Source: Okamejei kenojei
Taxonomy: Eukaryota
Length of the DNA stretch: 64,000 nucleotides
Direction of reading: 5' to 3'
NCBI GenBank assembly: GCA_035221665.1
Contig: CM069165.1
Span: forward strand, 19,964,001-20,028,000
Part shown: positions 262 to 59,730 of the stretch, piece after piece
Layout: every line of letters starts with the position of its first letter
Numbering within the stretch: the first letter of the stretch is position 1
Notes under the pieces: model-generated
The model's input: only the letters and a program-made list of their open reading frames with translations
The model's database searches: none
Told to the model about the DNA's origin: nothing
Made by a program: the position numbers and the translations under genes

Positions 262-645
262 CTCAAAGTCTGAGACGGATCCTGACCCGAAACATTGCCG
301 ATCCATTCCCTCCACAAATACTGCCTGACCTGCTGAGTTACTGCCGTACAATGTGTTTTGCTTTAGATAATAAATGAAGGTGTGAGGCAGGTTTGTTGAG
401 TTGGAAATGTAAATGTAAATCCAGAGGGAGGAAAGTAGCAGGAGAGGGTGGGGTGGTGGATGGAAGAGGGAAATAGGTGGGAGTCTAGGTGGGACAAAGC
501 GGGGGGCAAGGGAAATGGGGAAAGGGTTGTTGTGAGGGGTTACCTAAAAGTGGAGAATGCAATATTCATATGCTTGGTTGCAAGCTGCACAAATGGAATA
601 TGAGATGTTGTTCCTCCAGTTTGCATGTGGCCTCATTTGGCACAC
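262..645. mobile_element. Decayed Penelope-like element remnants (+ 3' tail at ~262-362, - body at ~363-645)
   Basis: gacccgaaacattgcc...ctgcctgacctgctgagttac tail. The minus strand carries a degenerate match to the PLE C-terminal 'KLEEQHLIF' region. Confidence 0.65.
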
Positions 646-794
646 ATCATCTTGACTGAATGATTTACATTTCCAATTCAGACATTATGGTAAGAAACAA
701 GTTACATTTGTTTCATGATTAAAATGAAAAGGAACCCTTCCATTGCTCTGATTAATCTTGTTTGATTCCAAGATATACAAGCACTAACACCAAC

Positions 795-987
795 CTTCCT
801 TCTGCATTGACTGAGTAAACCTAACCCCACGAGGGTTAACATAGTCCATATCATGTACTTCATGGATTGAAGCAGTGTCAGATATTTCTGTGAGGGAGTC
901 ACGATCTTCTAACACTTCTGGAATAGATTCCACCGATGTGAATTGAGCCTTCTCTTCCTTCGGCAAAAATTCATCTAATCTTCCGCC
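795..987 (-). CDS. GBF1: GBF1 coding exon (exon 11 equivalent)
   Basis: 193 bp, ttttgttttgaag|GGC...G|gttggt. Translates GGRLDEF...SVESIPEVLE...HDMDYVNPRGVRFTQSMQKE, a hallmark GBF1 motif. Confidence 0.94.
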
Positions 988-4983: not shown

Positions 4984-5175
4984 AGCAAAACAAAGTGCTG
5001 GAGGAACTCAGCTGGTCAGGCAACGTCTATGAAGGGAAATGGACAGGCAATGTTTCAGGTTTGGACCCTTCCAGACGCCTGTCCATTTCCCTTCACAAAT
5101 GTTGCCCGACCCACTGAGTTCCTCGAGCACTTAGAGTTTTGCTCAAGGTTCCCACATCTGCAGTTCCTGTGTTTC
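4984..5175. mobile_element. PLE-derived inverted-repeat (hairpin) element with a degenerate hammerhead core at the apex
   Basis: Arms 4984-5048 and 5077-5143 are imperfect reverse complements. The spacer on the - strand reads gtctggaagggtccaaacctgaaacatt. Confidence 0.75.
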
Positions 5176-6555
5176 TTTTGTGTCACAATTTTGTGAAGGA
5201 CTCAGAACATAATAATGATGCACGTGCCCCTTTGGTTAAAGTATACCTCCATGATCTTCGTATTAAAAACTTTTTTTTAAAGATTAAACAAACCTGACAA
5301 CATTGGGATGGAAACCAGCGAAGTCAATTGTATGAGAGATAGGTAAATCTACTGGCAGCAGGTTAATATGCTCAGATAATTAACACCACAGTGAAAGAAG
5401 ATTTAAGATGTCCAGTCAACATCAGCCTGAACTTGACAATATTGTTCTTGACTCTGACTAGTGGCCTTTGTTGGAGGTATTGAATTAATGTCCTAAATCA
5501 TGGATCTATCTCTCCGAAAACAAATAAAAGGTACATGTGTGCATTTGAGAAATTGTGTAAAACAAACACAGTGAGGCAGTGAGGACAAAAGAAACAGTGT
5601 TTTTCAAAATAGTTTAAAGATTTCTGTGAACTGCATTTATTTCTTGCTTACTTAGTCAATGTCTTTAAATATAACAAAAGTGTCCAGAAGCACAAAGTTC
5701 CAACATCAAATATATAATTTGAAAATAAATGCAGCTGAACTTTCAGGGGCAGGCAGCAATGGAATTTAAAATGCAAAAGGTCGACTTCAAAGGCTCCCAA
5801 GATGTCTCACAATGCTCTGCTAATGCAAACCAAATCAGTCAGTTTAGCAGGAACAGACTAAGCCAAAGTAGATGAACGGTTGCCCATATTCCTTCCATAC
5901 TTCACTTAACATATTCCCAATCTTAAAACAACTCAAACCTTAAATACAGAATTGTCAGCAACTTAAAACTGTCATCTCACTTTCCCATTCTATGTGGGAT
6001 CACTGACCCAAAACTTTGATTAGGTTTCTCCCTCCATAGATGATGCCTGGCCTGCTGAATGTTTCTACAGAGTTCGGTTTTTGTTTCAGATTTTCAGCAT
6101 CTGCAGTTGTTTTAATATTTCGAGAACAATAAAGGAGATTGATCTTCTGTGTAGCACTTACACCAGTACTCGGACAGACTTTCTCAAAAGTGCAGAAAGT
6201 AAGTAAACTACTGGATGCCCAAATAAATTGTTAAGACAGTGCAAATGACAGTTTACCCATTTATAAAAGGGGCGTTTTCCATATATTGGGAAAATTCCAA
6301 AAGAACACTCAAGCCTCAATTTCCTGTCAAATAATGATTTAGTGTCATTGCAAACTTTTAAATGTTTTTATTTAAAATTCTGAACTCTTTGAGAAACATT
6401 AATTAAGCGTTGCCAGGCGCAAAGCAGTCAAAACAAGATCATAATGCATACAAGCAAAGAAAACACACAAAAACAGGATGAAGTAAATTAAACACACAGC
6501 CCTATTTAAGCTAAAAGCCACCATGGAATCAACGGAAAATAAAATATCAGTCTAC

Positions 6556-10542: not shown

Positions 10543-10820
10543 TGGATGGTATAGTCAAGCATCGGTAGAGCTGCTGCCTTACAGTGCCAGGGACCCGGGT
10601 TTGATTCTGACTGCGGGTGTTATCTGGATGGAGTTTGCACGTCCTCCCTGTGACCGTGTGGGTTTCCTCCGGGTGCTCCGGTTTGTAGATTAATTGGCCT
10701 CTGTAAATTGTCCCTAGTGTGTGGGATAGAACTAGTGTAGGGGATGATCGCTGGTCGGCGTGTACTCAGTGGATCGAAGGGCCTGTGTCCACTGTACATC
10801 TAGACTAAAAACGAAACTAA
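10543..10820 (+). mobile_element. tRNA-derived V-domain SINE (HE1-like)
   Basis: A/B-box-like head (ggtagagctgctgcc...cccgggtttgattc), V-domain ggagtttgcacgtcctccctgtgaccgtgtgggtttcctccggg, CR1-type tail gaagggcctg...actaaa. Confidence 0.85.
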
Positions 10821-10985: not shown

Positions 10986-11252
10986 TGCCCCTGTCCCACT
11001 TAGGAAACCTGAACGGAAACCTCTAGAGACTTTGCGCCCCACCCAAGGTCTCCGTGCGGTTCCCTGAGGTTTGTGTCAGTCTCCCTAATGGTCAAAAGTG
11101 GTTTCCGGTAATTTTTTAGTCAAAGCCGGTTGCGATGCTAGTTGAAGGTGGTTGCCAGAGGACATAAGCCTCTGGGAATCGCACAGAAACCTTGGGTGAG
11201 ACGCAAAGTCTCCAGAGTTATCCGTTCATGTTTCCTAAGTGGGACAGGGGCA
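10986..11252. mobile_element. MITE with ~85-bp TIRs (PIF/Harbinger-like)
   Basis: TGCCCCTGTCCCACTTAGGAAAC... / ...GTTTCCTAAGTGGGACAGGGGCA. Flanks are ttt/tta; no coding capacity. Confidence 0.85.
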
Positions 11253-12559: not shown

Positions 12560-13014
12560 TCTTGTCTGCCTCTATTGCCACTTGCAGGGTACCTCTACCT
12601 CAAGGTCTCTTCACTCTGTGTTTTTGGAAGCTGAAAGAGATGCTCATTTTGTATTCACTTTTGTGTTCATGTGGCTACCCTTTTAACTAATGTTCCAAGC
12701 AAAAGATGTAGAATCCGTTTTGTTGTGAGTAAGAGATAGTTAGGAATATGAAGTCACCGATGTAAATCATATATCGGTACCCTAACAGTATTTACAGTGA
12801 AGGATGAATTTTTTAAAAATGGAGAGTTGACAAATGTAACCTTTAGGACAAATTTGTCGATATTTGCTACAGCTACAACAATAATACTGTGAGGAACCAA
12901 CCAGAATCAGACGATTTGATATCTATTATTGTGTAGTCAGACAGGATTAATTTATCTTTAGCAGAAAATCTCCTCGGAATGAGGAATGATGTTGAGTTTC
13001 AAATTCAGTTTATG

Positions 13015-13806: not shown

Positions 13807-14881
13807 TACCCCAATATTGCAATAGTTTTAAAGAGCAGTTTCAATCAAAAGCTGAAATGTATTTTGTTAGTACTTTGGTTATATGTAAACTTAATTTCAG
13901 TTTAAGCTCTTTTTAAATTATTTTATTCCTTTTGCTCAACACACATCATTCCAAGAGAAAGTTTATGCCTCTATTCCCAGTCTAAGAGAGCCTTTCATGG
14001 ACCATGGGTAGTATACAAGAATATTTCCAATTTCCCTTTTTCTCCTACTATTGAAATTGTTCAAAATAAAACAAACAGAAATTTTGAATTCATCACAAAC
14101 CAATGTAGCCCAAACCACTCAGGGCCCAAAGTTAAAAGTGGCGCTTGCAAAAAATAACCCCAATTCTCAGTAAATTCAAGACTAGAAATGCAAAATGTTA
14201 CTTAAATTCAGCACTAATTAGATCCAAAAAGTTGTCATGATGCAGATTACTCTTCTCAGGTTGGTGTATATTGTTCATGGTATAGTTGTTCATGGAGAAA
14301 AAAAAAATTCACTCCACGCTATATTTGCAACTCAAAAACACACATAATTTAAATAAATGGAAAATGTTAGCAGTTTGCATATTCATGCAGAAGTGACTGA
14401 ATCAAAAACAATTTAAACAAGATGACAAAGGTCATCCATATTTCAGCCATGGTGAAGCACCATGCATTACATAAATATTTGTGCTCGTCATTATGCTCCA
14501 TTCCTGGACCACATAGAATCCATTGGCAGAGTCCAGCTTGCTCAAAGTTTTCTCGGGTTTGCTGGGGAAAATTAAATTAGTCTTGCTGTTCTTGTTCAAG
14601 CCAAACATACTTATCCTAAAGTTATAATGATGCCTTAAAGCCTTATCCTAAAGTTATAATGATGCAGATGATGATCATTTGACTTGTCAGGTCCATGTCA
14701 GCACCCAGGGGAGTAATCCCATTTTAACATTCCTGCGCTCATTATTTCCCAATGGCCCTACAACTTATTCCCTTTCACATACGCCATCAATTCCCCTAGG
14801 TTCTTTTTTGCAACTAAGAGTAGTTTACAGTAGCGAATTAACCAACCAACATGTCCTACATGTTCACATGATGTGATATCA

Positions 14882-15421
14882 TGTGTCGGAAAGAACTGCA
14901 GATGCTGGTTTAAATCGAACGTAGACACAAAATGCTGGAGTAACTCAGCGGGACAGGCAGCATTTCTGGAGAGAAGGAATGGGTGATGTTTTGGGTCGAG
15001 GCCCTTCTTCAGACTGATGTCAGGGGATTGGGTGGAACAGAGATGGAATGTAGTCGGAGACAGTAAGACTGGTGGAAGAACTGGGAAAGGGGAGGGGATA
15101 GAGAGAGAGGGAAAGCAAGGACTGTTTGAAGCTAGATAAGTCAACGTTCATATCGCTGGGGTGTAAGCAACCCGAGCAAAATATGAGGTGTTGTTTGTCC
15201 AATTAGCACTGGGCCTCACTCTGACAATGGAGGAGGCCTAGGACAGAAAGGTCAGATTTGGAATGGGAGGAGTTAAAGTGCTGAGCAACCGGGAGATCAG
15301 GTAGGTTAAGGCAGACTGAGCGGAGGTGTTCAGCGAAACAATCGCCGAGCCTGTGCTTGACCTCGCCGGTGTACACAAGTTGACAACTGGAACAGCGGAT
15401 ACAGTAGATGAGGTTGGAGGA
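14882..15421 (-). mobile_element. Penelope-like element 3' fragment (GIY-YIG C-terminus, 3' tail, mutated hammerhead at 14985-15012)
   Basis: Minus strand encodes SNLIYCIRCS...DCFAEHLRSV...QHLIF. Its tail is shared with the other PLE copies. Confidence 0.88.
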
Positions 15422-15900
15422 GCTGGATGGTGGGTGTTCAGAGAGGATGGGGGTGCAAGAGGATTATTGTATGGCCACCATATCATGCCATGTGATATCA
15501 CGCAAGTGATATCATGCCATGTATTGTATGATGTGCCCATTGTAAACAGACTTCCATCAATTATACATTTACAATGCCAAGCAAATGGCTGAAGTATGGA
15601 ATCCATTGTGCCCATGTAACTTATTAGGAGGAGAGAGGAAGAATTTACCAAAAAGACAAAGTAAACAGAAGACAAGAGAAGGAATTAATCGGAACAATGT
15701 AGAGTACTATGTAATCCCCTGGTTCACAACAGAGACAAAGGAGAAATCCTGAAGCCAAAACATGGAATCCCCACATGGATTTGAATGAAATTGGATACAT
15801 CATTACTCTAATTACTGGCCAAGTAACCAGATTTCATTTTAATACCAGTAACTAATTGGTTCCGCTGTTTTTCTTTACATTAACTAACAGGCAGCATTAC

Positions 15901-16019: not shown

Positions 16020-17893
16020 CTGCAAAAAAAAACACTTCAGTATTAACATCCCTAAACTTTTAATTAACAATATTGAGCAAATTAAGGCTACTTCTAATTA
16101 GTCCACTTAAAATTTGCACTATAGAGGTTTCAGAGTTTAATGGTGTTAATAAAACCAATGATCCACCATCATTTCTTTGCAACATAAGAGTGATTCAGGG
16201 TTAATTTCATTATTGGTCAATGTGCACTGGCATTTTTATTTATTTTGTAATCAACTCCTGGAACAAACCTAAAATAGGGTTAAGCATAGAGACTGTAGCT
16301 TTTGGACACTTTTGTCATGGACTTTTCACAACCTCATGGCCTTAGTAGGAAATATAATCTTCTGACTGGGATGAAACAAACTGGCAATATTGTGGTCTAG
16401 GTCCTGGGGTTTTAACCAAACAGGGACTACCAAATGCCACTGTGCATCTTCAACATCAATGTATTCTTCACTTTCCTCCTAAGTACATAGACTTTACATA
16501 ATCTTTCAAATTATCCGTCCATAGCGTGTGGATGAGGAATAGTTTAAGATGCTGCAGTCAAGTACCTTAGCAATGGCAATAATTAGCTGTGTACTCTGTG
16601 GATATATACATCAAGACAAAATGGTCAACTTAGAAAGCTTAGACAAAGGGAGAATTGGCTGAATAAAAGGTTTTAGATTACATCAGTGAAAATACCAGAC
16701 TAATGAATCTTACTGCTTCAACAGCATTGAGCTTCCTGAAATTCAAGTTATTTATTGAAAAATATAGACAATTACAGTTACAGGTTGGAAAGCTGAAGCA
16801 TAACTTTACAATGACAGAACTGAAAAACAAAAAAATTCACACTACTTCACTGTCACATAAGGCCTAATTGATTCAAGTAATTGCCATTGATAAGGAAGGA
16901 ATCGTTTAATCGAGAATAGTAGAGCAAAGTAAAATAAATTTTCATGCTGGCTGGAAGCAGAACAGAGGTTTTGTTTTGACTTAGTTGAGTGGCTAAAAGG
17001 AAATGTAATGTTGTTTGCCCAAGTTAAAAGCTGCTACACGTCTCAGCTGTGAGGAGATATTGAGCACTGCATTACATAGTTAAACTGCACAGAATGTAAC
17101 TAACTTCCTCAAAAGGAAATGCAATACTAACATGTTGTGATATAATGACAGTTCAAAGTTGAACACTTCCCATTGCCACGGATGATGTTCGCCACAACTT
17201 TTACACAAAGGCACTGGCAATGACCACAACAGCGAAGCGAACAGCAAAACTCACAGCACCAAGGATGGACCACAGTAATATCGGAGATGCCATTGATTTT
17301 TTTCCATTATTGATTTTAGTACATATAAAAGATGGGAATAAATTACTACATATAGACAGGGGGCAGGTGATCATTTTCTACCAGTAGCATAACCCCCCCA
17401 AATAAGCTACTTTCTTGAAGTTTAGTAACAATTTGGCACAACTCCAGGCAGTAATCTGATCCAAGGGTTCTGCCCCAACTCATGCTGGCAACAATGCCAT
17501 CATTTATTGCCGTTCATGTTTAGATAATTATTATAGCAGTACTCCAATGGAAGGACATAATGTATCTATTTGTCGCAGGACACTTATTACTAAGAAATCT
17601 AAATCTGGCAGCAAGTGAAGACATGAATAAAAATACCAAGATATAGTTTATAAATCAGATTCACATACATAGCAGCTGGTTGGGATCTTGTAGTTCAAAA
17701 CTGTACCATTCTCTAAACCAGCTAAAACTTTGCCCTTTTCTGTAAAGTGCAGTCGTTCCAGCTGCTGGCACAATTATTAGCAACTTCCTTGCTGAAATTT
17801 ATACCAAAAGTACAAAGGGAATTAAAATTTTGATTTTGCATGCTGAAAATACATTCCTCACTTGGGCAAACTACTTATGTGACTACTGAACAA

Positions 17894-18022
17894 GTCTGAA
17901 GAAGGGTCTCGACCCGAAACGTCGCCTATCTCCTTCGCTCCTTAGATGCTGCTGCACCCACTGAGTTTCTCCAGCCTTTTGTGTACCCTCGATTCTCCAG
18001 CATCTGTAGTTCCTTCTTTAAC
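17894..18022 (+). mobile_element. 129-bp non-autonomous PLE-derived insertion starting at the hammerhead core; 9-bp TSD
   Basis: actgaacaa at 17885-17893 and 18023-18031. The body matches the 3' end of the PLE at 27001-27130. Confidence 0.88.
17896..17923 (+). ncRNA. Minimal type I hammerhead ribozyme motif
   Basis: CUGAAGA-A-GGGU-CUCG-ACCC-GAAA-CG-UC; core intact, stem I weak. Confidence 0.7.
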
Positions 18023-18975
18023 ACTGAACAATACTAACCTGATTCCACTACTCACTATCTTTACAAACTATTTTATCTGTATCTTATTGAAGCTTTAAGT
18101 TCACTCAACAGCATCTCCATCAATGAGCAATTGTAATCACTGAGATCCAACAAACACGTTGATAACTGGGTCAACTTATTTTTTAAATGGTACTTTCAGA
18201 TATCTTCTTCAAACATAAAGGACTGAACTCAAAAACAATTCTGTGCACTCATTTTTGTTATGTCATATACATTCATCAATTAATACAGCATAATGAAACT
18301 GGTGCCCATAGCAAATGTAATCATGCTTGCAGGTCTGGACTAGGTTTCCTGACTGGGGTCAGAGTAGGCGTTGTCTTCCCTGGACTATGCATTTATGGTA
18401 TAAATGTAACTAAGGGAATGCATAGTTAACATGCGTTATGTTGGCAGTTTTCCAAGCTTGAGGCCAGTCAAATTTCAAAAGATTTGCAAGCCGCCTTATT
18501 GAAACTGTATTGCGAATCCACGAACACAAATGCAATACAATATGAAAAGGCTTTACTTCCTTTCCCGAGTATTTCTTTTACCACATTGGAGACCATTTGG
18601 CCCATCCATGTTAGTTCTCTGAGCAAACCCATTAATCCCATTTGCCACACATTTCACTGTAACCTATTCTCCCTCATGTGGCTGTCAATTCCCCTGGTCA
18701 GTAACCACTAACCTGCACTAAGAAATACTTTTACAAAACAGAGCATCATTATAAAATTATTACTGTTATGACTACTTTACAATTATTAAATCTAGTTAAA
18801 TTAAAATGAATTATCACCTGCAACAGTAAACACTGATATTTTATGCCAATTTTCAACATTAATTCAGAGCAGGTTTCCAGTTCTCTTCCAAGGACATAAT
18901 TAAACGGAAAATTTGCAATTCATAATGTAACATTGCTCCTCTTCATTTGTCAATTAATTTATTTATTAATTTTCA

Positions 18976-19900
18976 TGTGTAAGAAGGAACTGCAGATGCT
19001 GGTTTAAATCAAAGGTAGACATGAAGTGCAGGAGTAACTCCGCAGGACAGGCAGCATCTCTGGTGAGCAGGAATGGGCGACATTTCAGGTTGAGACCCTT
19101 CTTCAGACTGATGTCAGTGGAGTAGGCGGGACAAAGATAGAATGTAGTCGCAGACAGTAAGACTGGTGGGAGAACTGGGAAGGGGGAGGGGATGGAGAGA
19201 GAGGGGAGGCAAGGGCTAGTTGAAGTTAGAGAACTCTATGTTTATACTCAGGGGTGTAAACTACCCAAGCGAAATATGAGGTGCTGTTCCTCCAATTTGC
19301 ACTGGGCCTCACTCTGACAATGGAGGAAACCCAGGACAGAAAGGTCAGATTGGGAATGGGAGGGGGAGTTGAAGTGCTGAGCAACCAGAGATCAGGTAAG
19401 TTAAGACGGACTGAGCAGAGGTGTTCAGCGAAACAATCACCAAGCCTGCACTTGGTCTCGCCGAAGTAGAGAAGATGATACCTGGAACAGCAGATACAGC
19501 AGATGAGGTTGGAGGAGGTGCAAGTGAACCTCTGCCTCACCTTGAAAGACCGTTAGGATCCTCGGATGGAGTCGAGGGTGGAGGTAAAGGGACAGGTGGT
19601 GCATCTCCTGCAGTTGCAGGGGAAAGTACCTGGGGAGGGGGTGGTTTGGTTGGGAAGGGTCAAGTTGGCCAGGGTGTTTGAGGGAACAGTCTCTGTGGAA
19701 AGCAGAAAGGGATGGGGATGGGAAGATGTGGCCAGAGGTGGGATCACGTTAGAGGTGGCGAAAATGTTGGAGGAAAATGGTGGAGGATTATATGCTGTAT
19801 GCGACGGCTGATGGGGTGGAAGGTGAGGACAAGGGGGACTCTGTCCTTGTTACGAATGTGGGAGGGGGAGCAAGAGCGGAACGCCAGGATATCGAGGAAG
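18976..19900 (-). mobile_element. Penelope-like element 3' fragment (GIY-YIG region, hammerhead at 19079-19106)
   Basis: PGTFPCNCRRCTTCPF / RQRFTCTSSNLICCICCSR..LYFGETKCRLGDCFAEHL. Confidence 0.92.
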
Positions 19901-24100: not shown

Positions 24101-26568
24101 GTGTAGCTTCAGTACAAACACCGTGCACGCCACAAAAACACGGTCCTGTGTAAAATGATCATTGTGTTGAATAAATAGGTTAGGAAGCCAATGGGTTTAA
24201 GTAATGTGTTCACAGACATTTTTAATTTTCCAAGTCAAGTCTGTTTGTTTAGCCACATCTCCATAGAGACTTTAATTGAAATTTATGAGGTCAGACATTT
24301 TGATTTGAAGCTATGCATGCGAGTGTGGAAACAAGCAAAGTCAAGTTGTTGGTTCACTGTGTAAAAAAAAATAGCCTGCTTTATTCAGAGTTCCATTCTT
24401 TTTTAAATGAACAATATAAAGATATGGGTTTATATCATTATATCTGGGCTGAAGAGTGGAAAGTCAAAGAATAGCACCGGCAATCATTGTAGATTTCAGA
24501 CTTAGTGGGTGTTGCACAAAGCATAAAGTGTAAGGAATGCGTTTGCAGGTAAAGAAATGGAAGGTGGCGGAAATGACAACAGAAATAAGGCTTTAAACAA
24601 AACTCTACGTCTAAGAAATATATCCCTCACAGAACTATTCTGTTACAAAATATCTGGTTGTTACTTAACCTCAAGTATAATCTTTCACATGCTTTGACCA
24701 CATGTTAGCTCTGTGCATATTTGGATAAATTGCACTCATCGGGAGATAAATTATCTTGGAATTTTTCTAAGTCTACTTCTTTTACAGTTAACATGTTTTA
24801 AACTCTTCCACAATGCAACTCAGAGTGGACATCGCCTTCTGCAGAGATCCCCAAGAGCAGACACTGAGACAGCTCAAAGTAACAAAGCAATTTGTTGATT
24901 CTATATGGAAGAATCATCATGTCAGGTTTAAAAAGATAAGCAAGATAGGAGCTTTCTGGGTCAAGCTTAAACTTCAATCAAATAACAATAATTGATTCAA
25001 GCGATTTGTGGAAAGCTCTATGTACATATGACTATAACAAAACATGTCAGGTTTCCAGGGTCCTAATCCTTCAGGCCAGTTTGGAATATTACAGCCACAA
25101 AGGATGCTTAATCTGCTATGTCAGCAATTCTCAGTAGAATCAGTGCTCTCGTCCATGTTGCTCTGAAGCTTTCAAGCAATGACCAAAACAACAACTCTGC
25201 ATGGATCAATAGACACGAGAAAATTATGCTATTTCTCACTTTCCTTGGGATCAGCAATGACTTCCCTGCGTTCCAGTTCTGTGTATTCATAGGTGGTTTG
25301 TGGTGCTAATTGAATCAGAGTCTCATAGACAAAGAAACAGGCCCTTCATCCCAGCATGTCCAACCCATTTAGACCATCTACACCTCTCCGATTTGACCAC
25401 GTTGGGTCAACATTCTTCTCTACCTTGCATATCAAATATGTGAATAAATGTCTCCTAAAATAAGTGATTGTATCCGATTCCACCAAACCTTGTGGAAACC
25501 TGATAAGATTAGCAGGTGGGTAATTTGGGAAGGGATGCACATCCTCAATTAGGTTTCTGCAGGCATCAAATGTATTGGCTCAAGGATTTAAATGCCACCC
25601 CAAGTGCTCCTCCATTTCAAGTGGTCCTAACCAGTATATGGGAGCGTTTCACTTCAAAGATTTATTGAATCTTTCTCTGTCCATGATTTAATTTCATTGG
25701 CAAGTTCTTCTTAAATTATGCAAAGGAGTCCATGTTTTCCTGAGTTGGTCTTTATAATTGGAGTGCAGCATTGCACAGCGGGACAGGTTGACTATTTTCT
25801 TTTGTGAAAGTTTTCATCAAAGCCGATTCTCTCACATGAGTCAACGTTGAGATGGTGACAACTTGGGGTCAGTTCATGTTGTCTGTGTACTGCAACTCCA
25901 TGACTAATGTTGAGGTGACATCACTTCTGGAGTAAAGATGATTGAAGTTGAATAGTCTTCATTAGCCCTATTCCAGTAGATTAGCTCTGCTCCAGTAGGA
26001 AGGAATGCAGCAACATTGGAACTGTTGGTTAAGGTTACATCCCACATCAATGTCTGTTTGCAGCCAAAATTTGAGAAACTTGTTCAACAGTCCCCTTCAT
26101 TGGCAGAATGAAAGGCTTTTGTCTCGTGGTTCTTGCAGCTCCCTCGATTTCTCATGGAGTTGTCACACAGTGAAAATCATGTCCCAGGCCACCAAAATGA
26201 GGTTATTATTCACAGGCCTCAACTGATTAAAAAAAGCCACCTGTCAAGATTTAAGATGGCTGGGTCAGGGCGAATAATCCTACCGTGGAAATTGAGGAAT
26301 TTCAATTCAGTTTAACTATTTGTGCAATTTCTTCTATTTTGGGATATGTAACCTGAGGTCTGCCCTGCATAATGTATCAATAAATCATCCTGCTCACTTT
26401 TATGTATTTGTCTATACAAGGATTTGTGGTTCTGAGGCCTTTCAACATACCACAAAGTGAGGAAGGAAATCATTAAAAATGCCTTACTACTTGTATACCA
26501 ATTCCATCATGTTCATGCCTCACCACTGTAGCAGGCAAAAAGTGTGAAACATCACCGAAACAAGATCA

Positions 26569-26679
26569 AAATGTCATCTATTCCTTTTCTCCAGAGGTGC
26601 TGCCTGTCCCGCTGAGTCACTCCAGCTTTTTGTGTCTGTCTTCATTTTAAACCAGCATCTGCGGTTCCTCCCGACACAT
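26569..26679 (+). mobile_element. Short PLE 3'-tail insertion
   Basis: aaaatgtcatctattcc...gctgcctgtcccgctgagtcactccagc...cagcatctgcggttcc. Begins at about the GAAA half of the hammerhead. Confidence 0.8.
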
Positions 26680-27000
26680 TGATAAAAATCTCCATTTGTA
26701 TTCTGAAAAAACTTCTGTAAAAATATCAACAAGCAAACTCAAAAGGGTGAGTCGAGGCAACAATCAAGGCCCTGGTGCCACACCATTTTCATGCTGTAGG
26801 GCATATTTGTTATATTTTATCTGTGTTTCTGGATAATTGGTTTTCCTACAGTGAGCCTTTAAAGGGAAGTGGTTATATTTAAAGATCTATGGGTCTATCT
26901 ATCTTCAATAAGTGCAAAATATTGCTGTTCAGTTACTTCTCAGTACAATTGCTTTGAATATTTCTTTTTGAAAGCCACCAACAAACAATATCATCATCAT

Positions 27001-35049: not shown

Positions 35050-35222
35050 CATTTCCTTGAGCATCGTCTGCTTTGATCTGTCCTTTTCACACCTCACATG
35101 CACTTTGACCCCTTCTATATCTCTAGTTTCCCTCTCCCTTTGACTCAGTCTGAAGAAGGGACTTGACCTGAAACATCACCCATTCCTGCATCCTGCTGAG
35201 TTAGTCCAGTATTTTGTGTCTT
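35050..35222 (+). mobile_element. PLE-type 3' tail with hammerhead-like core (35150-35177)
   Basis: cagtctgaagaagggacttgacctgaaacatcacccattcc...ctgctgagttagtccag. Confidence 0.75.
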
Positions 35223-35926: not shown

Positions 35927-36021
35927 TCAGTCTGAAGGGTCTCGACCCGAAACGTCTCCCATTCATTCTCTCCAGAGATGCTGCCTGTCCCGCTGAGTTA
36001 CTCCAGCATTTTATATCTATC
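35927..36021 (+). mobile_element. Short PLE 3'-tail insertion starting at the hammerhead (core has a 3-nt deletion)
   Basis: cagtctgaagggtctcgacccgaaacgtctcccattc...gctgagttactccagcatttt. Confidence 0.8.
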
Positions 36022-36154
36022 ATTCATATGAAAAACTAGACAGTCATGGTTTAAGTCTCCCAAGTGATAGCATGTACTTGTACGATAGACATACTACATT
36101 TACTTCAAAATGGAGGAAAGAAAGATCTTTATTCAAACAATGCACATCTCAGAA

Positions 36155-37972: not shown

Positions 37973-38103
37973 TGTTTAAGAAAGAACTGCAGATGCTGGA
38001 AAAATCAAAGGTAGACAAAAATGCTGGAGATACTCAGCGGGTGAGGCAGCATCTATGGAGTGAAGGAACAGGTGACGTTTCGGGTCGAGACCCTTCTTCA
38101 GAC
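37973..38103 (-). mobile_element. ~130-bp non-autonomous PLE-derived element with an intact hammerhead core (38074-38101)
   Basis: Minus strand gtctgaagaagggtctcgacccgaaacgtcacc...cagcatctgcagttctttcttaaaca. Matches the 3' end of the PLE at 58700-59730. Confidence 0.88.
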
Positions 38104-38760: not shown

Positions 38761-38832
38761 AAGCCAATCTACCATATTGCAGCCCTTGCATGTTTTTTAA
38801 TCTGCGCATTCTCTATTGCTGTAAATGTATAA

Positions 38833-39425
38833 AGGGCATGTCCCACCTGGCCGTCATTCGCGCGACCTGCTAGCGCGTGGGTAGCGTGGGACGGGCACAT
38901 GGAGTGGTGTGGAGGAGAGTGGCGTGGCATGGAGGAGTGTGGATTTCTTCCCGCACTAAATCTTTGCGTGCCACTGGCCTGTCGCCAAACTGACGGCCAG
39001 AAGTGGGACAGGCCCAAGATCCTGGCGCGGCGCAACGATCGCCGAGATCGGCCTGGGGCTCGGCCGTTGCGGATCCGGATCCGCCCCCACTCCTAATCCC
39101 AGAGTGGGGACAAGACGATTGGAGATATACACAAAATGTTGCAGGAACTCAGCGGGACCCGCAGCATCTCTGGAGAGAAGCAATGGATGACGTTTCAGGT
39201 CGAAACCCTCCTTCAGACTGAAGGAGTCTCGACCCGAAACATCATCCATTCCTTCTCTCAAGAGATGCTGCCGGTCCCGCTGAGTTACTCCTGCATGTTG
39301 TGTCTATCTTCAAATGACGTCATGCGCTCCAGACGGCTGTGTGGACGCATGATGTCGCATGCGACCGTCACGCATCAGTCACTACCGGCCTGTCGCCTAA
39401 ATGACTGCCAAGTGGGACAGGCCCT
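38833..39425. mobile_element. Harbinger-like MITE with TAA TSD and a nested PLE hairpin
   Basis: TAA-AGGGCATGTCCCAC ... GTGGGACAGGCCCT-TAA; CpG-rich; a second internal TIR copy at ~39003-39015. Confidence 0.85.
39123..39309. mobile_element. Head-to-head PLE-tail palindrome with two degenerate hammerhead cores
   Basis: Arms are reverse complements meeting at cttcagactgaagg (39211-39224). Confidence 0.85.
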
Positions 39426-39441
39426 TAACACTGTAACACTA

Positions 39442-46879: not shown

Positions 46880-47544
46880 AGTGGTGAGGAAGAAACTGGT
46901 GACAAATGGAGGTGGTGATGTCGGAGGTTGAGAATGGGTGGAGAAAAAACTGTTAACGATAGATAATGAAGAGCTCATCAAAGATCAACACCTATTAAGT
47001 ATCAAAATTCAGGAGAAGAAAAACAAAAAATTGGCCACACTATGTGTCGATGAGATATGAAACGATTTCTACTATATTGATCCACTACCCAGGATCACTT
47101 TCAGTAGGCTGCCTCTAACAACCTCCCAATCTTCTTCAATATTGGCAGAATAAGACACTATACTTAAAATCAATTTTCAATACCACAGAAAAGAACGAAA
47201 TTCAGCAAGACAAACAAGCTAACAATGAGAAAGAGCTTTCAAATTCTTAAGGTCAAACACAATGACCTGTGTACAACATTCCGAATGATTTAACGGTCTA
47301 CTATGAAGCAATTGCTTCACTGCACTTCTGGAGCGGATTGTCCTGTAAACTTGCCACCCTGTCATTTCAGAGACTTTTTTTATGGCTCTGTTGAAGGAAC
47401 TCTGCAAATACATATGATCAAACTTTGATTTATCAAATAACGGTGACATGAATGTTATGTATCATAATTTAATTTATTTTTAAATCACAGACACTGAGTG
47501 GTACAGCAATTTGTTCTTCTTGAATTACAAGTACTCATCAATTG

Positions 47545-47584
47545 TAAGAAGGAACTGCAGATGCTGGTTTAAACCAAAGAGATA
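47545..47584 (-). mobile_element. ~40-bp PLE terminal fragment with 9-bp TSD
   Basis: catcaattg at 47536-47544 and 47585-47593, flanking taagaaggaactgcagatgctggtttaaacc. Confidence 0.75.
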
Positions 47585-47789
47585 CATCAATTGCCTTTCC
47601 CTTTATAGTCAGCTCATTTAATTGGACTTGTGCCAAGGAGGGCAGGGTGGAAGTGCGAACAATAACCAGACCCAACACATGAACACAAATGCCAAGGTGA
47701 ATGCCCCCAATGGCTATTGAGAGAGTGCTGCAGTCAGATGCATCATCTTTCACATCGTAAATGGAGGTCCTGCCTGCGCAAGTTTTTGA

Positions 47790-47975: not shown

Positions 47976-48015
47976 AAGATAATTTTTCCTTTTTCTCCTC
48001 CCTCCACAGACCAAT

Positions 48016-48140
48016 GCCCCTGTCCCACTTAGGAAACCTTAACGGAAATATCTGGAGACTTTGCGCCCCACCCAAGGTTTCCGTGCAGTTCCCGGAGGTT
48101 TTTGTCAGTCTCCCTAATGGTCGAAAATGGTTTCCGCTTC
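48016..48140. mobile_element. Left half of the 10986-type MITE
   Basis: tgcccctgtcccacttaggaaac...ctccctaatggtcgaaaatggtttcc closely matches 10986-11107. Confidence 0.85.
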
Positions 48141-52179: not shown

Positions 52180-52206
52180 ACACACACACACACACACACA
52201 CACACA
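52180..52206. repeat. (CA)n microsatellite
   Basis: Directly visible. Confidence 0.95.
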
Positions 52207-52435
52207 GCTGCCGGCTTTTGCCGAACACCGTAAAAAGGTTATTTATACGGCGAATCCGGGACACTTGGCATCTCTGCGTATCACATCACGATTTATACAT
52301 AAACAACAACCAGAATTTTATTAGCACGATTAAACATCTAAAGATACTGCAAATTTAAATACAAACATATAGGGAGAAATTAGATCAGCAAAAGGTAGGT
52401 TTTAATGAATGCCTCACAGTGGAAAGATTAGTAGT

Positions 52436-52717
52436 TGGACAACAGCACCTCATATTTCACTTGAATAGCTTACACCCCAGCGATATGAACATTGATTAAC
52501 CTAACTTCAAATAGCCCTTGCTTTCCCTCTCTCTCCATCCCCCTCCCCCTTCCCAGTTCTTCCACCAGTCTTACTGTCTCCAACTGCATTCTATCTCTGT
52601 CCCACACACTCCCCGGACATCAGTCTGAAGAAGGGTCTTGGCCTGAAACGTCACCCATTCCTTCTCTCCAAAGATGCTGCCTGTCCCGCTGAGTTACTCC
52701 AGCATGTTGTGTCTACC
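52436..52717 (+). mobile_element. PLE 3' fragment with hammerhead core (52625-52652)
   Basis: QQHLIFHLNSLHPSDMNID followed by the tail. Near-TSD tagtagttgga (52429) / tagcagttgga (52718). Confidence 0.88.
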
Positions 52718-53283
52718 TAGCAGTTGGATTCCAGACTAGGCAATGCAAGATTCCTACCCTAAAATGAATGGCAGAATACAACATTTTATTTTACAGTTTC
52801 AAATAATGCATCATGCTTTTGGTGTTAATTTTGTAGAAAATTAATGGCAACTTTTCAGTTGGTGCAAATATTATTCTTTGTACATTAATCCAGGTACTTG
52901 GGGTTCCACAAGAAAAACAAATGTAAGCACATCAGGAAGCATGCATTTTTGGAGGAAGCAAAGGATGCTTTTAGCGATAATAATATGGGAAATATTATTT
53001 TTCCTGTTTTGCGATAATAGGAGAAAGCTTAAATAATGCATTTGCACCCTCCTTTGGAAAAATGCTGGAAGTTTTAAAGAGACCACCCCCAATAACATGA
53101 AAAGATTGGCCTCCACGCTTCCTGAGCACAGAGGCCATATATCTATACATGAATGTCATGTAACATTGGCCTCATCAAGGCCAATGTTATTTTAAGATGA
53201 CCTTTTAAATCTGATGCTTAAATCTTTTAATGGTTCAATGGTGCTTTATTCTTATTGCAACAAAGCCAACACACTTATCCAGG

Positions 53284-53414
53284 TGTGCAGGAGGGAACTG
53301 CAGATGCTAGTTTAAACCAAAGATAGACACAAAAAGCTGGAGTAACAGCAGGTCAGACAGTATCGCTGGAGAAAAGGAATAGGTAATGTTTCAGATCGGG
53401 ACCCTTCTTCAGAC
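53284..53414 (-). mobile_element. ~130-bp PLE-derived element bounded at the hammerhead core; short TSD ccaggt
   Basis: ...aatgtttcagatcgggacccttcttcagac; ccaggt at 53279 and 53414. Confidence 0.82.
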
Positions 53415-56400
53415 CAGGTATTCTCAGAGTCCAACAGGATAGCACAATATTTCAGAACTTCTAAGCTCTCAGAAAGAGATGTCTATTTGGTGAACCTATT
53501 CTAGGCTAAAGCTGGCGGTTAGTTGCAGAGTTTAAGACAATGACTCTTAATCCTAAAACGTTAATCCTGCTTTTTCCACAAATACTGCCTGACCTGATGA
53601 ATGTTTCCACCATTTAACTGCGTTTAGTTGATTTTTACTGCATGGTTATTTTATAGAAAAAGAGCGAATATTATTTCTAAGATTTTAACAATAGATTTTA
53701 TTTTCTTCAAATGGCTGAAAACATCATCTTTGACATTAATAAACAATCAGTGCCACTGATTCTTCTGACAAATTGGTGATCCTAAGGTCAAGGCCTCACC
53801 AGTTCTGCGATTGTAGAAGGCTCACTGTACCAAGAGGGCCATGTACAGCAGTGGGTCATGCAGGTCTGCCAGACCAAGACTGTACAGTGGCCAAACTGAA
53901 ACTAGTAATGTTACCCAGGTTCAGGCAGAGAATGATTTGTACCACCATTTAAACAAAATATAATGTACAGTTCAGGTGGATCTGGGTATCTTTGTGCATG
54001 CAGGTACACAGAAAATAATTAGGAAAACTATCTGCGGGAAACTTGTATAAGGATTTAGGAATGTTAACACAATTGATTCCTGATATGAATAGTTGATTGT
54101 GTGTAACAATTGTGGGGTCAGGTCTGTACATTTAAGTTAAGAAGAATGAGTGATGATCTCACTGATGCTGCATGGATTGGTGATGAGAGAGGAGGTTTTC
54201 CCTCAGAGGCATCTTGTTCAATAGGACATAATAATAATAATAATCATTTAGACCTACCATCAAGGGTTTAGGGATCTTATCAGTTTTCTATATCAGAGGT
54301 GCGAAGGCCAAGTCACTGAATACACTCAAGACTCAAAGATATTTGGACTTCAGGGGAATGAATGTCATGGAAAATAGTTAGGAAATTAGAGCTCAGCAAT
54401 GAGATAATGGAATGAAGAAACTGGAGCCCACGTCTGCTCCTATTTTGCTCAACATTCAGCAGCCATAACGTTGACACAATCAAACATCACTGTTGAGCAA
54501 TGAGAAATGATTTAACTTGTGCACACGGAGTTCTCATAAACAAGAAAATAATAATGGCCAGATAATTTGTTTTAATGATGCTGATTGAAGAAGAATCTTG
54601 ACACTAATGCAACTCCACCACACCGTGTTTGAAATGTTGTAATTGAATCTTTATGATGTTTGAAGACTTCCAATGTCATAGAAACATTTATACATCTCTC
54701 TTTTAGTGTCTCAGTTAAAAGCTGTACATCTAACAGTGTAGCTCTCATTTGGTATTGCACCCAAGTGACAGGTCTGATGTACTGGTAAGTTTCTGCAAGA
54801 GGACTTAAAATTAACACATGTTGAAATGCATTACTTTCATTATCGGAAACGCTATGAAAGGAAAATTGTCGTTAAAAATGTCTTAGTGATAAATTTAAAA
54901 CAAGAAAGTCATAATTCTGTGATCCCAATACTTTTAAACAGCATTAAAAGAAACAAGGCCGTAGAGCAATTTAACAACAAATAAAACTTATTTCTATGAT
55001 TTTGGTGACAACAAAATATTTAATTGACATGGAAAATATAATTTGCAGCAGAAATATTGGAAATCCATGAACTCTTAGTGAGGATCAATTCTTGTTGGAA
55101 CTATTTAATTGAGCCAGATCTCTTCCAGCCTTCCCACCACCCCCTAATCTCAACAGGCTACAGCCTGAAGCCAGCAAGGATGAAAAATAATAATGAAATT
55201 CCTGCAGAGAGTGTTATTTGGGCTAACAAACTGTGCTGGAAATGACATTAGAGTCCAAATAATTTTATCAGAACTAGGAAAAGTTAAAAGATACCAAGTT
55301 TTACGAGAGCGAGAAAGGGAGAGGAGAGTAAAGGAAGAAATCAAGGTTTATGACATCAAGGAAAGCAAACTAGGTAGCAGAGAGGACCCTCAATTTACAT
55401 GGGGTTTGCATTTCTAGAAAACAGTGCTTATTACAAAAGGAAATGAGAGTTGAATAATAAATTGTATTTACTTTTTGTTCCCTCTTTAAAAATTCCATGA
55501 GAGTGAATTTCATTACACATCTCAAATTTTTGGATAGCAATTTGTGAATTCTGGATGGCCAGTTTTCTTAACCCAAATAGCCAAATCGTAGGCATCACCT
55601 GTAAATAAGTAGGGTAAAAATGCAAAGTGGCCACAGTCCAGAATAGGTGAACATGCAGGGAAGGTTCTAAAATTACTGAAGGAAGGATCTTTGGAATAAA
55701 AGTGATGGAAGACCGATTATTTAAAACTGTTGAACTGAATATTAAGTTTGAAAGATTGTGTGTGGTGCTTCCAGTCAGAAGACGAGCTGCTACTGAGTTT
55801 CACTGGAATGTTGCAGGATGCTGAAGACCACATGGCTGGCGTGTCAATAAAATGGACATAAATTGGACCTTCGATCCAATTGACTGCTTGCAAATCTTTG
55901 TTTTAAACACATTAAACCATGTTTCTCAGAACATCAATACCCAAGCTAATATATCAAAGGTCTTAACGTCCAAGGTATTTTACTGATCTCCAGCCTTCCA
56001 GTATATTCAGTATTTCATGTTTTCTTGCATCATGAAAAAAAAACATTGATAAAAAATTTAGAGAAAACAAATGCACTTGAGACAACCGATTCTCAGCACA
56101 ACATATTTTACCTTACAAACAATGACAAATAACCACACAAATAGTTTGCGCATCACGTATAAAAGAAGATCAAGATATCAAGACTGCCACATGTGCTCTA
56201 TGAAGCAGGTAACCAGTGATTATTTATCAGTCACCTTGGCTGTATTGCAAAATAAGTAAACCTTTAGATCAAGTTTTGAACAGCCAGGTTATGTGCGATT
56301 ATCAACTAATCAATCTTTCAGGAAATGACAAGGTCATTGCACTAGAATCCAAACTTTAGCAAGTAGCTTGAAGTGGGTTCTATCAGTATGTGTGATCTGC

Positions 56401-58704
56401 CTGACATTTGGAGTGGTCATTAATGCTTAAAAGATGATATTTTTTTCTTATTATCCTCACAGTCATTAAACCAACTGCTCAACACCCTCCGTGAGATTGC
56501 CTTGGTTACTCTTCTGGGTGACCTTGTTCACGCTCTTAATAATGCTGTTATTTGTTGGACAAACCACAATCAAATCTGACCTAAAAGTGACAACACAGCA
56601 TAAGCTCCAACTAGATAAACAGCAGCTGTTTAATCAGTTTGGTCTCTCTCCGTCTATGCAATTGACATGCACAATACCTCAATCAGTTCTCTCAGGTCAC
56701 TATATTATATAACCTATAATTTTGTGTGCAATACCTCTACAAAATAAAGCACATTTATGCCATAGAACACACGTCTTAGTTGCACAATATTTCAGACCTG
56801 AATGATAAAGGATATCTGAATTTGAAAACCAACAAATCAAACCAATGAGTAGAGTTGCAACATGCTGATGATTCAGTGACATCAACTGGTCCTTTATTGT
56901 ATTGAAAATGGGTATGTCTGGAATATAGACCAGGTGTTGTTGAAACTCTGGTGGTTTACTTATTACTTTTCCATTGCAAAATGGCACGACGGATGCCAAT
57001 TTAAAAAAAAACAGCACAATTAAAATGCACGCTAAGACTTAAATTTGCCTGTTGATACTTTGTAGCAAGCACGAATGAGGTTTTTTTAAAATTATATAAA
57101 AACCATTAAAAATACAAAACTTCAAAAGATATTTTTGTATTAATATTAAAATTTTCTGTCAAATGCCATAAGAAAGAAAAATCATTGGTATGGCACAATC
57201 ATTGTGTGCCATACCAGAGTAGATATAAAATATAGATTTCAATAATTTTGTGATCCTGGTCAAAATACAAGTAATTATAACATTTTATTGCTAAATGTTA
57301 TGATGGCAATCAGTTCACAGCTAAATGGGCAGCAAAATTGCAACTTTAATCCAAAGTTAATAGTCAAATTAACAACCTCAAGTTTGAATTCCTCTTGAAT
57401 AAGGCCACTTGGCCTCTCACACACTATTCCAGCATGTCCCTGCTATAATCATCCCACCATACTCCACAATTCACTGGAACTAATCCTTTGGACTCTACTC
57501 GATTAAGAACCACTATATATATGTTTTCCTTTGGTATCCCATTGCAAGATTACTACAATTTCATGAAAACCATATTGCCACGCAAAAAGTCCAAAACATA
57601 AAAATAGAGACAGAAGCAACAATTGGGCATAAACATTTCTAGACCCGAGCAAGAGCTTGAATTTCTAAAATCAAGTTACAAAAGAAGCACAATGAACTTG
57701 CGCAATGAAGGCAATTTAGGCAACCGGAAAAGAATATCTAAATTTCAAGGGATAAGAAGCAGCCCACATTTTCTTCAGTGTTTTGTCTTTGATTATGATG
57801 TTACACAGAGGGAGCTGCTAAGTCGGGGACTATCTTGCAGACATTGAATGCGAGGTCCATCCTCACACAGATTTCAGTTGAAGACGGCTTGGAACCGAGT
57901 TGTGCAATGTCAACTCAGATCCCATGGAACCAGAGTGGAATTAGCTATCTGCTTACATCCATGATGATGATGGCAACAAGTGAAATAATAATCAAGGAAG
58001 CGATAAAATGTATTGCTGAAGGTTTCGGCAACAGATAACTGAGGCAAATGAAAGAAGTGGCCAGTGGTGCAACGCTGTCTTTATAAACAGAGAGGACATG
58101 GAAATGTAATCTCAGTGACCAAAAAAGGTCGAGTATAGGTGGCTAATCAAAATAACAAAATTGGTAATAATGAAATAAAGCCTCCGAAGGTTTTTTACAA
58201 CAAAAATATTCCTCTTATTCAAGAGAAAGAACCTGCAGCTTGCCCGAAACCAGAATGGATTGGATAGATCGACCAATATCAGAGGGGTTGCAATAGATAG
58301 AGCTGGAAGTCATGAGCGGCAGGTACAACCTGAAATCAGGTGAGAAATTAGAAGACTTAGGAAAAATCTTCAAAGTGATGGCACTGATACGGGAGGGAGT
58401 GGTGGTCAGTGGTAGTAACAAAAAAAGTTAAGCAAATTGCATTTTTCATGGGCCGAATGGCCTAATTCTGCCCCTACAACATGAAATGGTGGATATTTAC
58501 CAATGATCTTGCTTTCCAAGATTGGCAACCTGGCACCATCTACAGGGAACATGTGGAACATAGGAATAGCAAAGTCACGGAACTAATTTGGTTAAAGATC
58601 CCTCATGGAGAGAAAACAAGTAGATAGCGTGATTTTTTTTTTACATTTTACAGAAGGCAAACTAAAACTTGGGATACAATAAAGATAAAAACATTTATCA
58701 GTGC

Positions 58705-59730
58705 GTTCTACTGCAAACCCACTGACTCCCACGGCTATCTGGACTACACTGCTTCCCACCCTTGCTCCCAGTAAGGACGCTATCCTCTACTCACAATTCC
58801 TCCGTCTACGCTGCATCTGCACCCGCACCCAGGATGAGGTGTTCCAAACCAGGGAATCGGAGATGTCCTCATTCTTTAGGGAACGGGGGTTCCCCTCTTC
58901 TGCTATGGATGAGGCTCTCACCAGGGTCTCCTCTATATCCCGCAGCTCCGCTCTCACTCCCCATCCCCCCACTCGCAACAAGGATCCAACAGGATCCCAC
59001 CACTGGCCACATCTTCCCATCTCCTCCCCTTCCTGCTTTTCGCAGAGACAGCTCCCTCCGTAACTCCCTGGTCAATTTGTCCCTTCCCACCCAAACCACC
59101 CCCGCCCCGGTACTTTCCCTTGCAACCGCAGTAAATGCTACATTTGTCGCTTTACCTCCCGCCTCGAGGTGAGACAGAGGTTCATCTGCACCTCCTCCAA
59201 CCTCATCTACTGCATTCGCTGTATCAGGTGTCAACTGCTCTACATCGGTGAGACCAAGCGCAGGCTTGGTGATCGCTTCGCTCAACACCTCTGCTCAGTT
59301 CCGCAATAACCAGCCTGATCTGCCGGTGGCTCAGCAATTTAACCCCTCCTCACATTCCGTATCCGACCTTTCTGTCCTGGGCCTCCTCCATAGCCAGAGT
59401 TAGGCCCACTGCAAACTGGAGGAACAGCATCTCATATTTCGCTTGGGTAGTTTACACCCCAGTGGTATGAACATTGATTTCTCCAATTTTAGGTAGTCCT
59501 TGCTTTCTGCCTCATTTCCCTCCCCTTCCTAGCTCTCCCGCAGCCTACTGTCTCCGCCTCTTCCTTTATTTTTCCTGTGCCCCCCCCCCCCCGACATTAG
59601 TCTGGGGAAGGGTCTCGACCTGAAACGTTGCCTATTCCTTCGCTCCATAGATGCTGGCTCACCCGCTGAGTTTCTCCAGCTTTTTTGTCTACCTTCGATT
59701 TTTCCAGCATCTGCAGTTCTTTCTTAAACA
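58705..59730 (+). mobile_element. Penelope-like element 3' part (RT thumb, GIY-YIG, tail with mutated hammerhead at 59602-59629)
   Basis: CKPTDSHGYLDY, YSQFLRLRCIC, NLIYCIRCIRCQLLYIGETKRRLGDRFAQH, KLEEQHLIF. Confidence 0.93.

Follow-up and report, generated by a model that had tools for sequence, protein, structure and literature searches.

Short hammerhead-bearing insertions in the genome of Okamejei kenojei as probable by-products of Penelope-like element reverse transcription

The stretch of DNA analysed here (hereafter, the window) comprises 64,000 nucleotides of the Okamejei kenojei genome (assembly GCA_035221665.1, contig CM069165.1, positions 19,964,001 to 20,028,000), over which copies of a segment of about 130 nt, carrying a minimal type I hammerhead ribozyme motif, are dispersed. 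Some of these copies are short and non-coding, others belong to longer Penelope-like elements (PLEs) bearing an open reading frame (ORF). On the basis of sequence comparisons, the short copies are probably end-pieces of the PLE, i.e., by-products of a reverse transcriptase (RT) priming in the 5'-most pseudo-long terminal repeat (pLTR) and running off at the 5' end of the RNA. In the following, coordinate zero of the segment is C3 (the C of CUGA), and the predicted ribozyme cut falls at +28. A search profile built from ten window copies recognised 23 pieces in the window, and the 16 core sites listed in a preliminary description of this DNA all proved to be copies of one segment, correctly placed and oriented; a complete core (CUGANGA, a stem II of at least 4 bp, and GAAACGUH) is kept at only four of them (17896, 32106, 52625, and 38074).

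Five subfamilies (A, B, B2, C, and D) were told apart by the sequence upstream of the segment. The longest PLE copy of the window, belonging to subfamily B (26997..28700, minus strand), contains a broken RT, a GIY-YIG endonuclease (EN), a pLTR, the hammerhead, and the tail; it also harbors a 31-nt internal duplication at its 5' end (28665-28695 and 28475-28505), and about 300 nt are deleted at 27860 relative to other B copies. 5'-truncated PLEs of subfamily A are located at 14879..15425 (minus strand; ORF end, pLTR, broken hammerhead, and tail), 18973..19900 (minus strand), and 52432..52718 (plus strand; intact core and short 3' end), and one of subfamily C at 58705..59731 (plus strand; broken ORF, pLTR, broken hammerhead, and tail). 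A copy at 35111..35221 (plus strand) retains about 90 nt of D-type upstream pLTR and has an internal deletion, and an isolated fragment of the 3' end of the PLE ORF was recognised by sequence comparison at 541..635 (minus strand). The short solo copies include a young one with a B module and an intact core (17893..18024, plus strand), which starts at -3, reaches the tail end, and is flanked by a target duplication of about 9 bp (flanks read by eye); one with a 3-nt deletion in the core and the short 3' end (35927..36027, plus strand); one with a C module and an intact core, starting at -2 and reaching the tail end (37973..38103, minus strand); and one with the same two ends and a mutated helix III (53284..53414, minus strand). 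A short copy with the tail end is cut off inside the motif (26568..26679, plus strand), and a fragment at 47543..47594 (minus strand) consists of the tail only. The profile search also recovered, all on the plus strand, an old short copy with a broken core, starting about 3 nt before C3 (267..363), a decayed copy without the 5' part of the core (6004..6110), and a weak old fragment (53552..53623, E 0.004).

Six of the listed or implied copies turned out to be arms of head-to-head pairs, located at 32009-32203, 39118-39315, and 39438-39626. The first one is a B/B pair composed of one tailed and one tailless arm on opposite strands, with a 12-bp target duplication, whose plus arm begins at -2 and has an intact core; the second one is a passenger of a non-autonomous DNA element with terminal inverted repeats (38832..39426); the third one, again involving both strands, has a 14-bp target duplication. 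A fourth, older pair lies at 4989..5168 (4989-5076 minus, 5087-5168 plus). As for the relationships between short and long copies, the matching of 17894 and 32009 with the PLE at 27001 (subfamily B) and of 37973 with that at 58705 (subfamily C) proposed in the preliminary description stood, and its third group could not be tied to the type of 14882, 18976, and 52436, since three subfamilies share the segment at 98-100% identity.

The PLE origin assigned to the short copies was borne out by the RT, the GIY-YIG domain, and the linker present in related long copies. The RT domain was recognised at locus L015 (PF00078, E 1e-5) and the C-terminal endonuclease at 27381-27950 of the window (PF01541, E 4e-4), both below the curated cut-offs, and the DKG and GIY-YIG motifs are recognisable in the translations. 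In the translation of L016, a CX4CxxC linker is located between RT and EN; a CX2-5CxxC linker in this position defines the Neptune/Nematis clades (PMC8557442; this and the other papers cited are drawn upon for the parts of their text that were available). Partial tandems forming pLTRs, inverted 5' copies, and a one-sided tail of 30-40 bp, all known from EN-containing (EN+) PLEs, were also found. Judging from these translations and from this layout, the parent of the short copies is a Neptune/Nematis-type EN+ PLE. It shares with the canonical unit the RT, the linker, the GIY-YIG domain, the partial tandems, and the inverted 5'-truncated copy, as well as the 30-40 bp tail at one end and target duplications of similar size; this canonical layout is that of PMC8557442 and PMC3846280. 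It differs in that most insertions are ORF-less and end at one fixed point, and in that some units continue beyond the tail as far as the ORF start, where they adjoin the next unit. In the ORF-bearing copies, the same segment is found upstream of the ORF and continues through the 5' untranslated region (UTR) to the first ATG, about 160 nt after C3; therefore, the 130-nt piece closes an inserted copy at its 3' side and opens the following unit at its 5' side, as in other PLEs (PMC11167929). The first ATG is embedded in a donor-like AAG|GTATG, a putative splice site conserved across subfamilies (at about +160 in L063; also in L036, L108, L156, L158, L307, and L312).

The minimal type I hammerhead with a bulged A and an ACGU helix III, described beforehand, was retrieved in the majority segments of all five subfamilies. 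A family-independent descriptor yielded 80 hammerhead motifs in 1.44 Mb and none in the reversed sequence. An Rfam scan gave no hammerhead match at E<=1 and 12 weak matches, those to hairpin families being the head-to-head pairs; the hammerhead call thus rests on the descriptor scan and on the literature. The majority sequences of the five subfamilies do not differ at any position of the 28-nt core, and the 55 nt upstream of it are only 47-65% alike between subfamilies, with the exception of one comparison; this difference points to selection maintaining the hammerhead on putative master elements. In a set of 224 cores, substitutions affect C3 to G5 in 9-10% of copies and CpG positions in as many as 29%, and hardly any double compensatory change was seen; on these substitution patterns, the single short copies decay as neutral DNA, not under selection on the core. 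No covariation of stem II was detected within the genome, stem II being identical, and not covarying, across subfamilies. Look-alike minimal hammerheads were observed in metagenome contigs (L264-L288, probably animal DNA in the samples), where stem II sequences differ and pair over at least 4 bp in 11 of 20 distinct motifs, compared to 1.2 in shuffled sequences. Helix I is 2 bp long by inspection, and in the predicted folds of all five subfamily segments the core region pairs with sequence after the cut site, so that the hammerhead of single copies is predicted to be inactive. Dimer hammerheads and low cleavage rates have been described (PMC6765202).

These features recall the minimal hammerheads of metazoan PLE pLTRs (PMC4209133), with which the segment shares the core, the base bulged between A9 and G10.1, the palindromic minimal helix III, the location in the pLTR, and the occurrence mostly as single dispersed motifs, with some pairs on opposite strands. 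It differs from them in a helix I of 2 bp (as in D. virilis), a stem II of 4-5 bp, and a core sequence common to five subfamilies. In that study, thousands of single motifs per genome were read as probable truncated PLEs.

The abundance of the segment was estimated on a grid sample of 138 stretches of 10 kb across 29 contigs of the genome (1.38 Mb), in which the profile matched 544 pieces, with no match in the reversed control. An exact-match count of the 28-nt core over the whole 2.76-Gb genome gave 48,215 occurrences (control 0); the 25 exact matches of the core in the grid sample predict about 50,000, and the sample is thus representative. By extrapolation, about 1.09 million pieces would make up 3.7% of the genome, and the intact cores (47 in the grid sample) would number about 94,000, in agreement with the very high load of ribozyme motifs suggested in the preliminary description. 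About 4,000 motifs have been reported for the coelacanth and 9,000 for Xenopus (PMC4209133), figures based on different descriptors and therefore not comparable like for like. Hammerhead counts in such fishes would mostly tally dead stubs (in the window, four intact cores out of 16) rather than active ribozymes or retrozymes.

The analysis of the copy ends was carried out on 332 of the 544 grid matches (identity of at least 85%, at least 40 nt aligned, 3' end at +60 or beyond, and off the stretch edges), whose 5' ends were located by comparison with 58 long copies. The single 3' terminus previously proposed was replaced by two, at about +93 and +130 from C3, the shorter being the commoner among short solos (53 vs. 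32); the difference is the optional tail known from PLEs, which in Anolis marks two internal RT start sites (PMC11167929). At the other side, the segment is truncated in 145 copies, 130 have their end at -8..0, and 57 continue upstream; in other words, 130 of the 187 copies reaching position 0 end in an interval of a few nucleotides. The end rate per nucleotide is 0.12 at this peak, 0.004-0.006 upstream of -21, and 0.001 at +27..+29, i.e., the ribozyme cut site, where just one of the 332 copies ends. The peak persists at identity cut-offs from 0.75 to 0.95, and confirms that, as expected beforehand, the length distribution of the short copies is not smooth. Copies from the two 3' ends pass the boundary at similar rates (28/104 and 13/57), so that the stop is site-specific. 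All five subfamilies have YCAGTCT at the boundary, a sequence similar to the initiator motif.

Target duplications of 9-16 bp flank 10 of 28 young solos, compared to 0.24 in shuffled flanks, and 23 of 86 solos at a looser cut-off (1.2 in shuffled flanks). Hence, the solos are true insertions, and mobilisation by target-primed reverse transcription (TPRT) is supported by these duplications. Moreover, 185 of the 567 pieces of the window and the grid sample are arms of head-to-head pairs, of which 92 were counted against 10 tail-to-tail ones. In 53 of 65 pairs, one arm has the tail and the other one the short end, where 32.5 would be expected, and in 25 of 26 typed pairs both arms carry the same module type. 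A one-tailed inverted layout has already been described for PLEs (PMC3846280, PMC8557442).

On the whole, we regard the following scheme as the most probable account of these data. The PLE protein would cut both target strands 9-16 nt apart, and each cut strand would prime at one of two internal start sites, by analogy with the Poseidon element of Anolis carolinensis, in which two internal RT start sites, the cutting and extension of both strands, and the dispensability of hammerhead cleavage have been described (PMC11167929). The RT would prime in the pLTR nearest to the 5' end of the RNA and then run off, and the pile-up of 5' ends, with its initiator-like YCAGTCT, would mark the transcription start, which in PLEs has been placed inside the pLTR (PMC2377424, PMC8557442). 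The run-off cDNA, if joined to the target, would give a solo copy and, if joined to a second cDNA, a head-to-head pair; a jump of the RT to a new template would generate tandem units, partial tandems, and subfamily mosaics. According to this scheme, the short copies would be made anew as by-products of each element cycle rather than copy themselves, and the hammerhead would not set their ends.

The likeness to Poseidon is close in several respects: the two 3' ends of that element lie about 35 nt apart and correspond to two internal start sites, priming on both strands fits one-tailed pairs, and the hammerhead cut does not define the ends. It is not complete, since Poseidon belongs to another clade, its ORF starts in stem II and not about 160 nt after C3, and a fixed 5' stop of genomic copies, seen here, is not reported for it in the available text of the source (PMC11167929).

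Further information derives from copies extending beyond the tail. Post-tail sequence, a part of ORF-bearing units that is confined to their 5' end, was found in six grid-sample copies, five of which stop at +186..+299, three of these five abutting another unit. Considering all the fetched loci, 21 over-run junctions were collected, in 14 of which the next unit begins at -8..0; read in the direction of synthesis, the RT would have reached the peak, jumped to a post-tail site, and copied the segment again. Purines make up 18 of 20 nt in the spacers between the joined units, and five of seven spacers end in G, although few spacers are available and the method itself partly determines the last base. 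The subfamilies are also mosaics: B and B2 are 95% alike upstream of the boundary and 79% downstream of it, and A, D, and B2 are 62-65% alike upstream and 98-100% downstream. Both over-run junctions and module mosaics fit an RNA end at which the RT adds bases and switches template, and the over-run units suggest that the 5' end of an ORF-bearing RNA served as template and that the RT jumped there. Over-run units observed at L156, L229, L307, and L321-L348 reach the 5' UTR or the ORF start (+155..+372), the next unit following directly, in many cases after a short spacer rich in A and G. Genome-wide, a G, as might be left by an RNA cap, is in excess before the copy ends (3,308 G vs. 3,488 Y at -2; 2,143 G vs. 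3,663 W at -3), microhomology at head-to-head junctions accounting for part of this excess.

Several observations are at odds with the run-off scheme. The 5' peak is broad (-8..0), with end rates raised up to +25, and does not coincide with one base; the arms of a pair are rarely each other's nearest copies (6 of 73 fall in the top 1%); the grid-sample solos show no G excess (18/60 vs. 17.5 expected); and the 21 over-run junctions derive mostly from a search aimed at one junction, so that their positions are biased. In addition, among 12 ORF-bearing B copies reaching the upstream hammerhead, only two end there (at 0 and +4) and 10 continue upstream, to be compared with the 130 of 187 first-pass copies ending at the boundary (Fisher p 4e-4); a single RNA start at -3 would not account for this, and read-through templates or a homologous jump must be added to the model. 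Assembled contigs of four sequencing runs, one of them probably DNA and another, recorded as RNA, represented by 24 contigs, reveal no transcription starts. Lastly, the 92-nt tree described below would also accommodate short master copies identical to long ones.

In the preliminary description, the short copies were regarded as a self-propagating retrozyme/SINE-like (short interspersed element) family, transcribed on its own and mobilised in trans. Such a family would account for the fixed 5' boundary, the very high copy number, and the target duplications, which are those of a SINE-like TPRT insertion, and non-autonomous PLE derivatives do exist (PMC8557442; bioRxiv 10.64898/2026.07.22.740005). 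Animal non-LTR retrozymes are likewise short and non-coding, carry a type I hammerhead, and are akin to PLE pLTRs; they form tandem repeats of 170-400 nt with a hammerhead per unit and produce circular RNAs (PMC7229834; bioRxiv 10.64898/2026.07.22.740005). The copies examined here, on the contrary, are solo or head-to-head, 95-135 nt long, and are not cut-to-cut monomers, the cut site being avoided by their ends. No tandem array of the unit is present in the window, a tandem neighbour was found for just 16 of the 567 copies, and the observed tandem junctions join unequal units, unlike a retrozyme array. No head sequence of their own was found at the 5' side, where host flank or target duplication directly adjoins the PLE segment, and core positions mutate at background or CpG rates. 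A tree of 203 of the 567 copies (150 short and 53 long; 92 nt, FastTree and Fitch count) revealed no clades made of short copies, an outcome named beforehand as counting against the family: the short/long label changes 44 times, compared to 47.1 +/- 2.2 after shuffling, 117 of 1,000 shuffles giving 44 changes or fewer, and on the same tree the subfamily labels, used as a positive control, change 8 and 7 times vs. 39 and 32 when shuffled. The three composites that recur as units might be taken as independent propagation, yet two of them sit between the terminal inverted repeats of DNA elements. An independent family, for which neither clades, arrays, nor a head were found and whose members decay neutrally, is thus improbable.

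Other explanations concern the nature of the boundary. The main rival of the run-off scheme, which we consider unlikely, maintains the by-product origin and assumes that the nascent cDNA folds back, terminates, and self-primes at a fixed end, the candidate fold-backs being the TCAG-N-CTGA palindrome, stem II, or the pairing of CUGAAGAAGG with CCUUCUCUCCAG. Many pair junctions do sit on such palindromes or microhomologies, for which self-priming has been suggested (PMC3846280), and both the predicted pairing of the core region with post-cut sequence and the raised end rates at +1..+25 are in line with it. A hairpin, however, should halt the RT to the same extent each time it is met, and 10 of 12 ORF-bearing copies run past the boundary; moreover, a fold-back leaves unexplained the second arm ending at the other start site (53 of 65 pairs), the solos whose target duplication adjoins -1..-5, and the pairs with spacer bases between two peak-ending arms. 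The boundary might otherwise be a 3' splice site, the RT halting at the branch point or copying spliced RNA, which would account for the ORF-bearing copies passing it; a pyrimidine tract, CURAY, and a CAG at -1, the acceptor-like upstream sequence of most subfamilies, the donor-like motif before the ATG, the D. virilis intron ending at helix I (PMC4209133), and three loci at which the donor is joined exactly to the acceptor (L201, L202, and L320) speak in its favour. This appears very improbable, since the exact junctions belong to the continuum +155..+372 and the query itself had selected +160, a microhomology of 2 nt merges three registers, a looser pattern gave such a junction at only one of 30 loci, CURAY lies 4-7 nt from the AG, and there is no sharp family-specific edge and no upstream exon in the solos. 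Vertebrate branch points usually lie farther than 4-7 nt from the AG. As for self-cleavage of the hammerhead creating the template ends, the identity of the core in five subfamilies and the covariation of stem II among the look-alikes of other organisms' contigs would be in its favour; with a single copy in 332 ending at the cut, short copies containing the entire core upstream of it, a helix I of 2 bp, and, in Anolis, no reads ending at the cut and no need for cleavage (PMC11167929), self-cleavage is refuted as the cause of the copy ends and retains next to no likelihood. Hammerhead cleavage may have another role than setting ends.

Some more specific candidates were discarded. The splicing out of the ORF as an intron, to which three exact junction sequences at two loci had pointed, lost its basis with the junction continuum that a wider search revealed, and no junction copy of a second donor near the ORF stop was present in the fetched loci. 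For a branch-point stop with a family-specific edge, no sharp edge is visible: in subfamily B, the ends of 23 non-long copies from the grid sample and the window are scattered over 0..-5, and in 100 rows of mixed families, of which the first 50 were read by eye, over 0..-7. By inspection, a type III hammerhead cutting at -4/-3 is contradicted by subfamily B, which lacks a UH triplet there and shows the same peak.

It is known that LTR elements make minus-strand strong-stop DNA and that the R2 RT jumps between templates. Going beyond the run-off scheme, one might envisage, with less confidence, a strong-stop-like PLE cDNA that is primed at the pLTR next to the capped 5' end of the RNA, runs off about 3 nt before the core, and then jumps, failed jumps leaving about a million stubs (3.7% of the genome). 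Priming near the 5' end of the RNA, run-off, and transfer would be common to these systems; unlike strong-stop DNA, priming would be from target DNA and not from a tRNA, neither an LTR nor an integrase is involved, and the transfer is putative. If this were true, the partial tandem, as well as the exchange of the hammerhead-tail module among subfamilies, would result from jumps into the 3' pLTR, and jumps to the 3' ends of short promoter-proximal transcripts would yield the over-run tandems.

The element class, the ribozyme, and the insertion layout are already published. In the literature searched, from which most subscription papers, Dfam, and Repbase were missing, neither a constant 5' end at the hammerhead nor an occurrence of this family in cartilaginous fish is described; likewise, the searches found no paper combining Penelope with strong-stop (in this sense) or with lariat or branch point, no relevant one on hammerheads in cartilaginous fish, and only PMC3846280 for template jump and pLTR. 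The supplements of bioRxiv 10.64898/2026.07.22.740005 list families for one cartilaginous fish and may bear on prior cataloguing. The value of the present data lies in the mechanism: the PLE RT is the sister group of telomerase RT, how partial tandems, inverted copies, and one-sided tails arise in PLEs is not yet settled (PMC8557442, PMC11167929), and about a million insertions with a fixed 5' stop and readable jump junctions offer exact predictions for the existing in vitro system.

Concerning the recurrent composites, the one at 38832-39426 is repeated at L102, L147, and L200, and L159 contains its carrier without the pair; a head-to-head pair entered this non-autonomous DNA element once and then multiplied as a passenger. 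Its terminal inverted repeats adjoin TTAA-like sites, and we take the carrier to be similar to Kolobok/T2 miniature inverted-repeat transposable elements. A second pair-bearing composite (L254, L255, and L259) is enclosed by terminal inverted repeats and, in L259, flanked by a target duplication of 8 bp, its carrier being presumably hAT-like; a third one, also in a carrier, is found at L135 and L258.

Other repeats are interspersed in the window. Two copies of a short tRNA-like repeat (10559-10655 and 63714-63810) look similar to the HER1 SINE of sharks and rays, in line with a host from the skates, rays, or sharks. Other retroelement fragments, without Pfam matches, are located at 11999-12571 (minus strand), 36154-36345, 40311-40370, 41419-41478, and 42266-42325, and from their translations we assume them to be CR1-like. 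A frame of 156 amino acids (33543-34013, minus strand) matches PF09004 (ALKBH8_N, E 1.5e-20) and is likely the C-terminus of another long interspersed element (LINE) family rather than a host gene. Lastly, a further repeat occurs as an inverted pair at 10986-11252 (92-nt arms, 83 nt apart), with another copy at 48013-48136.

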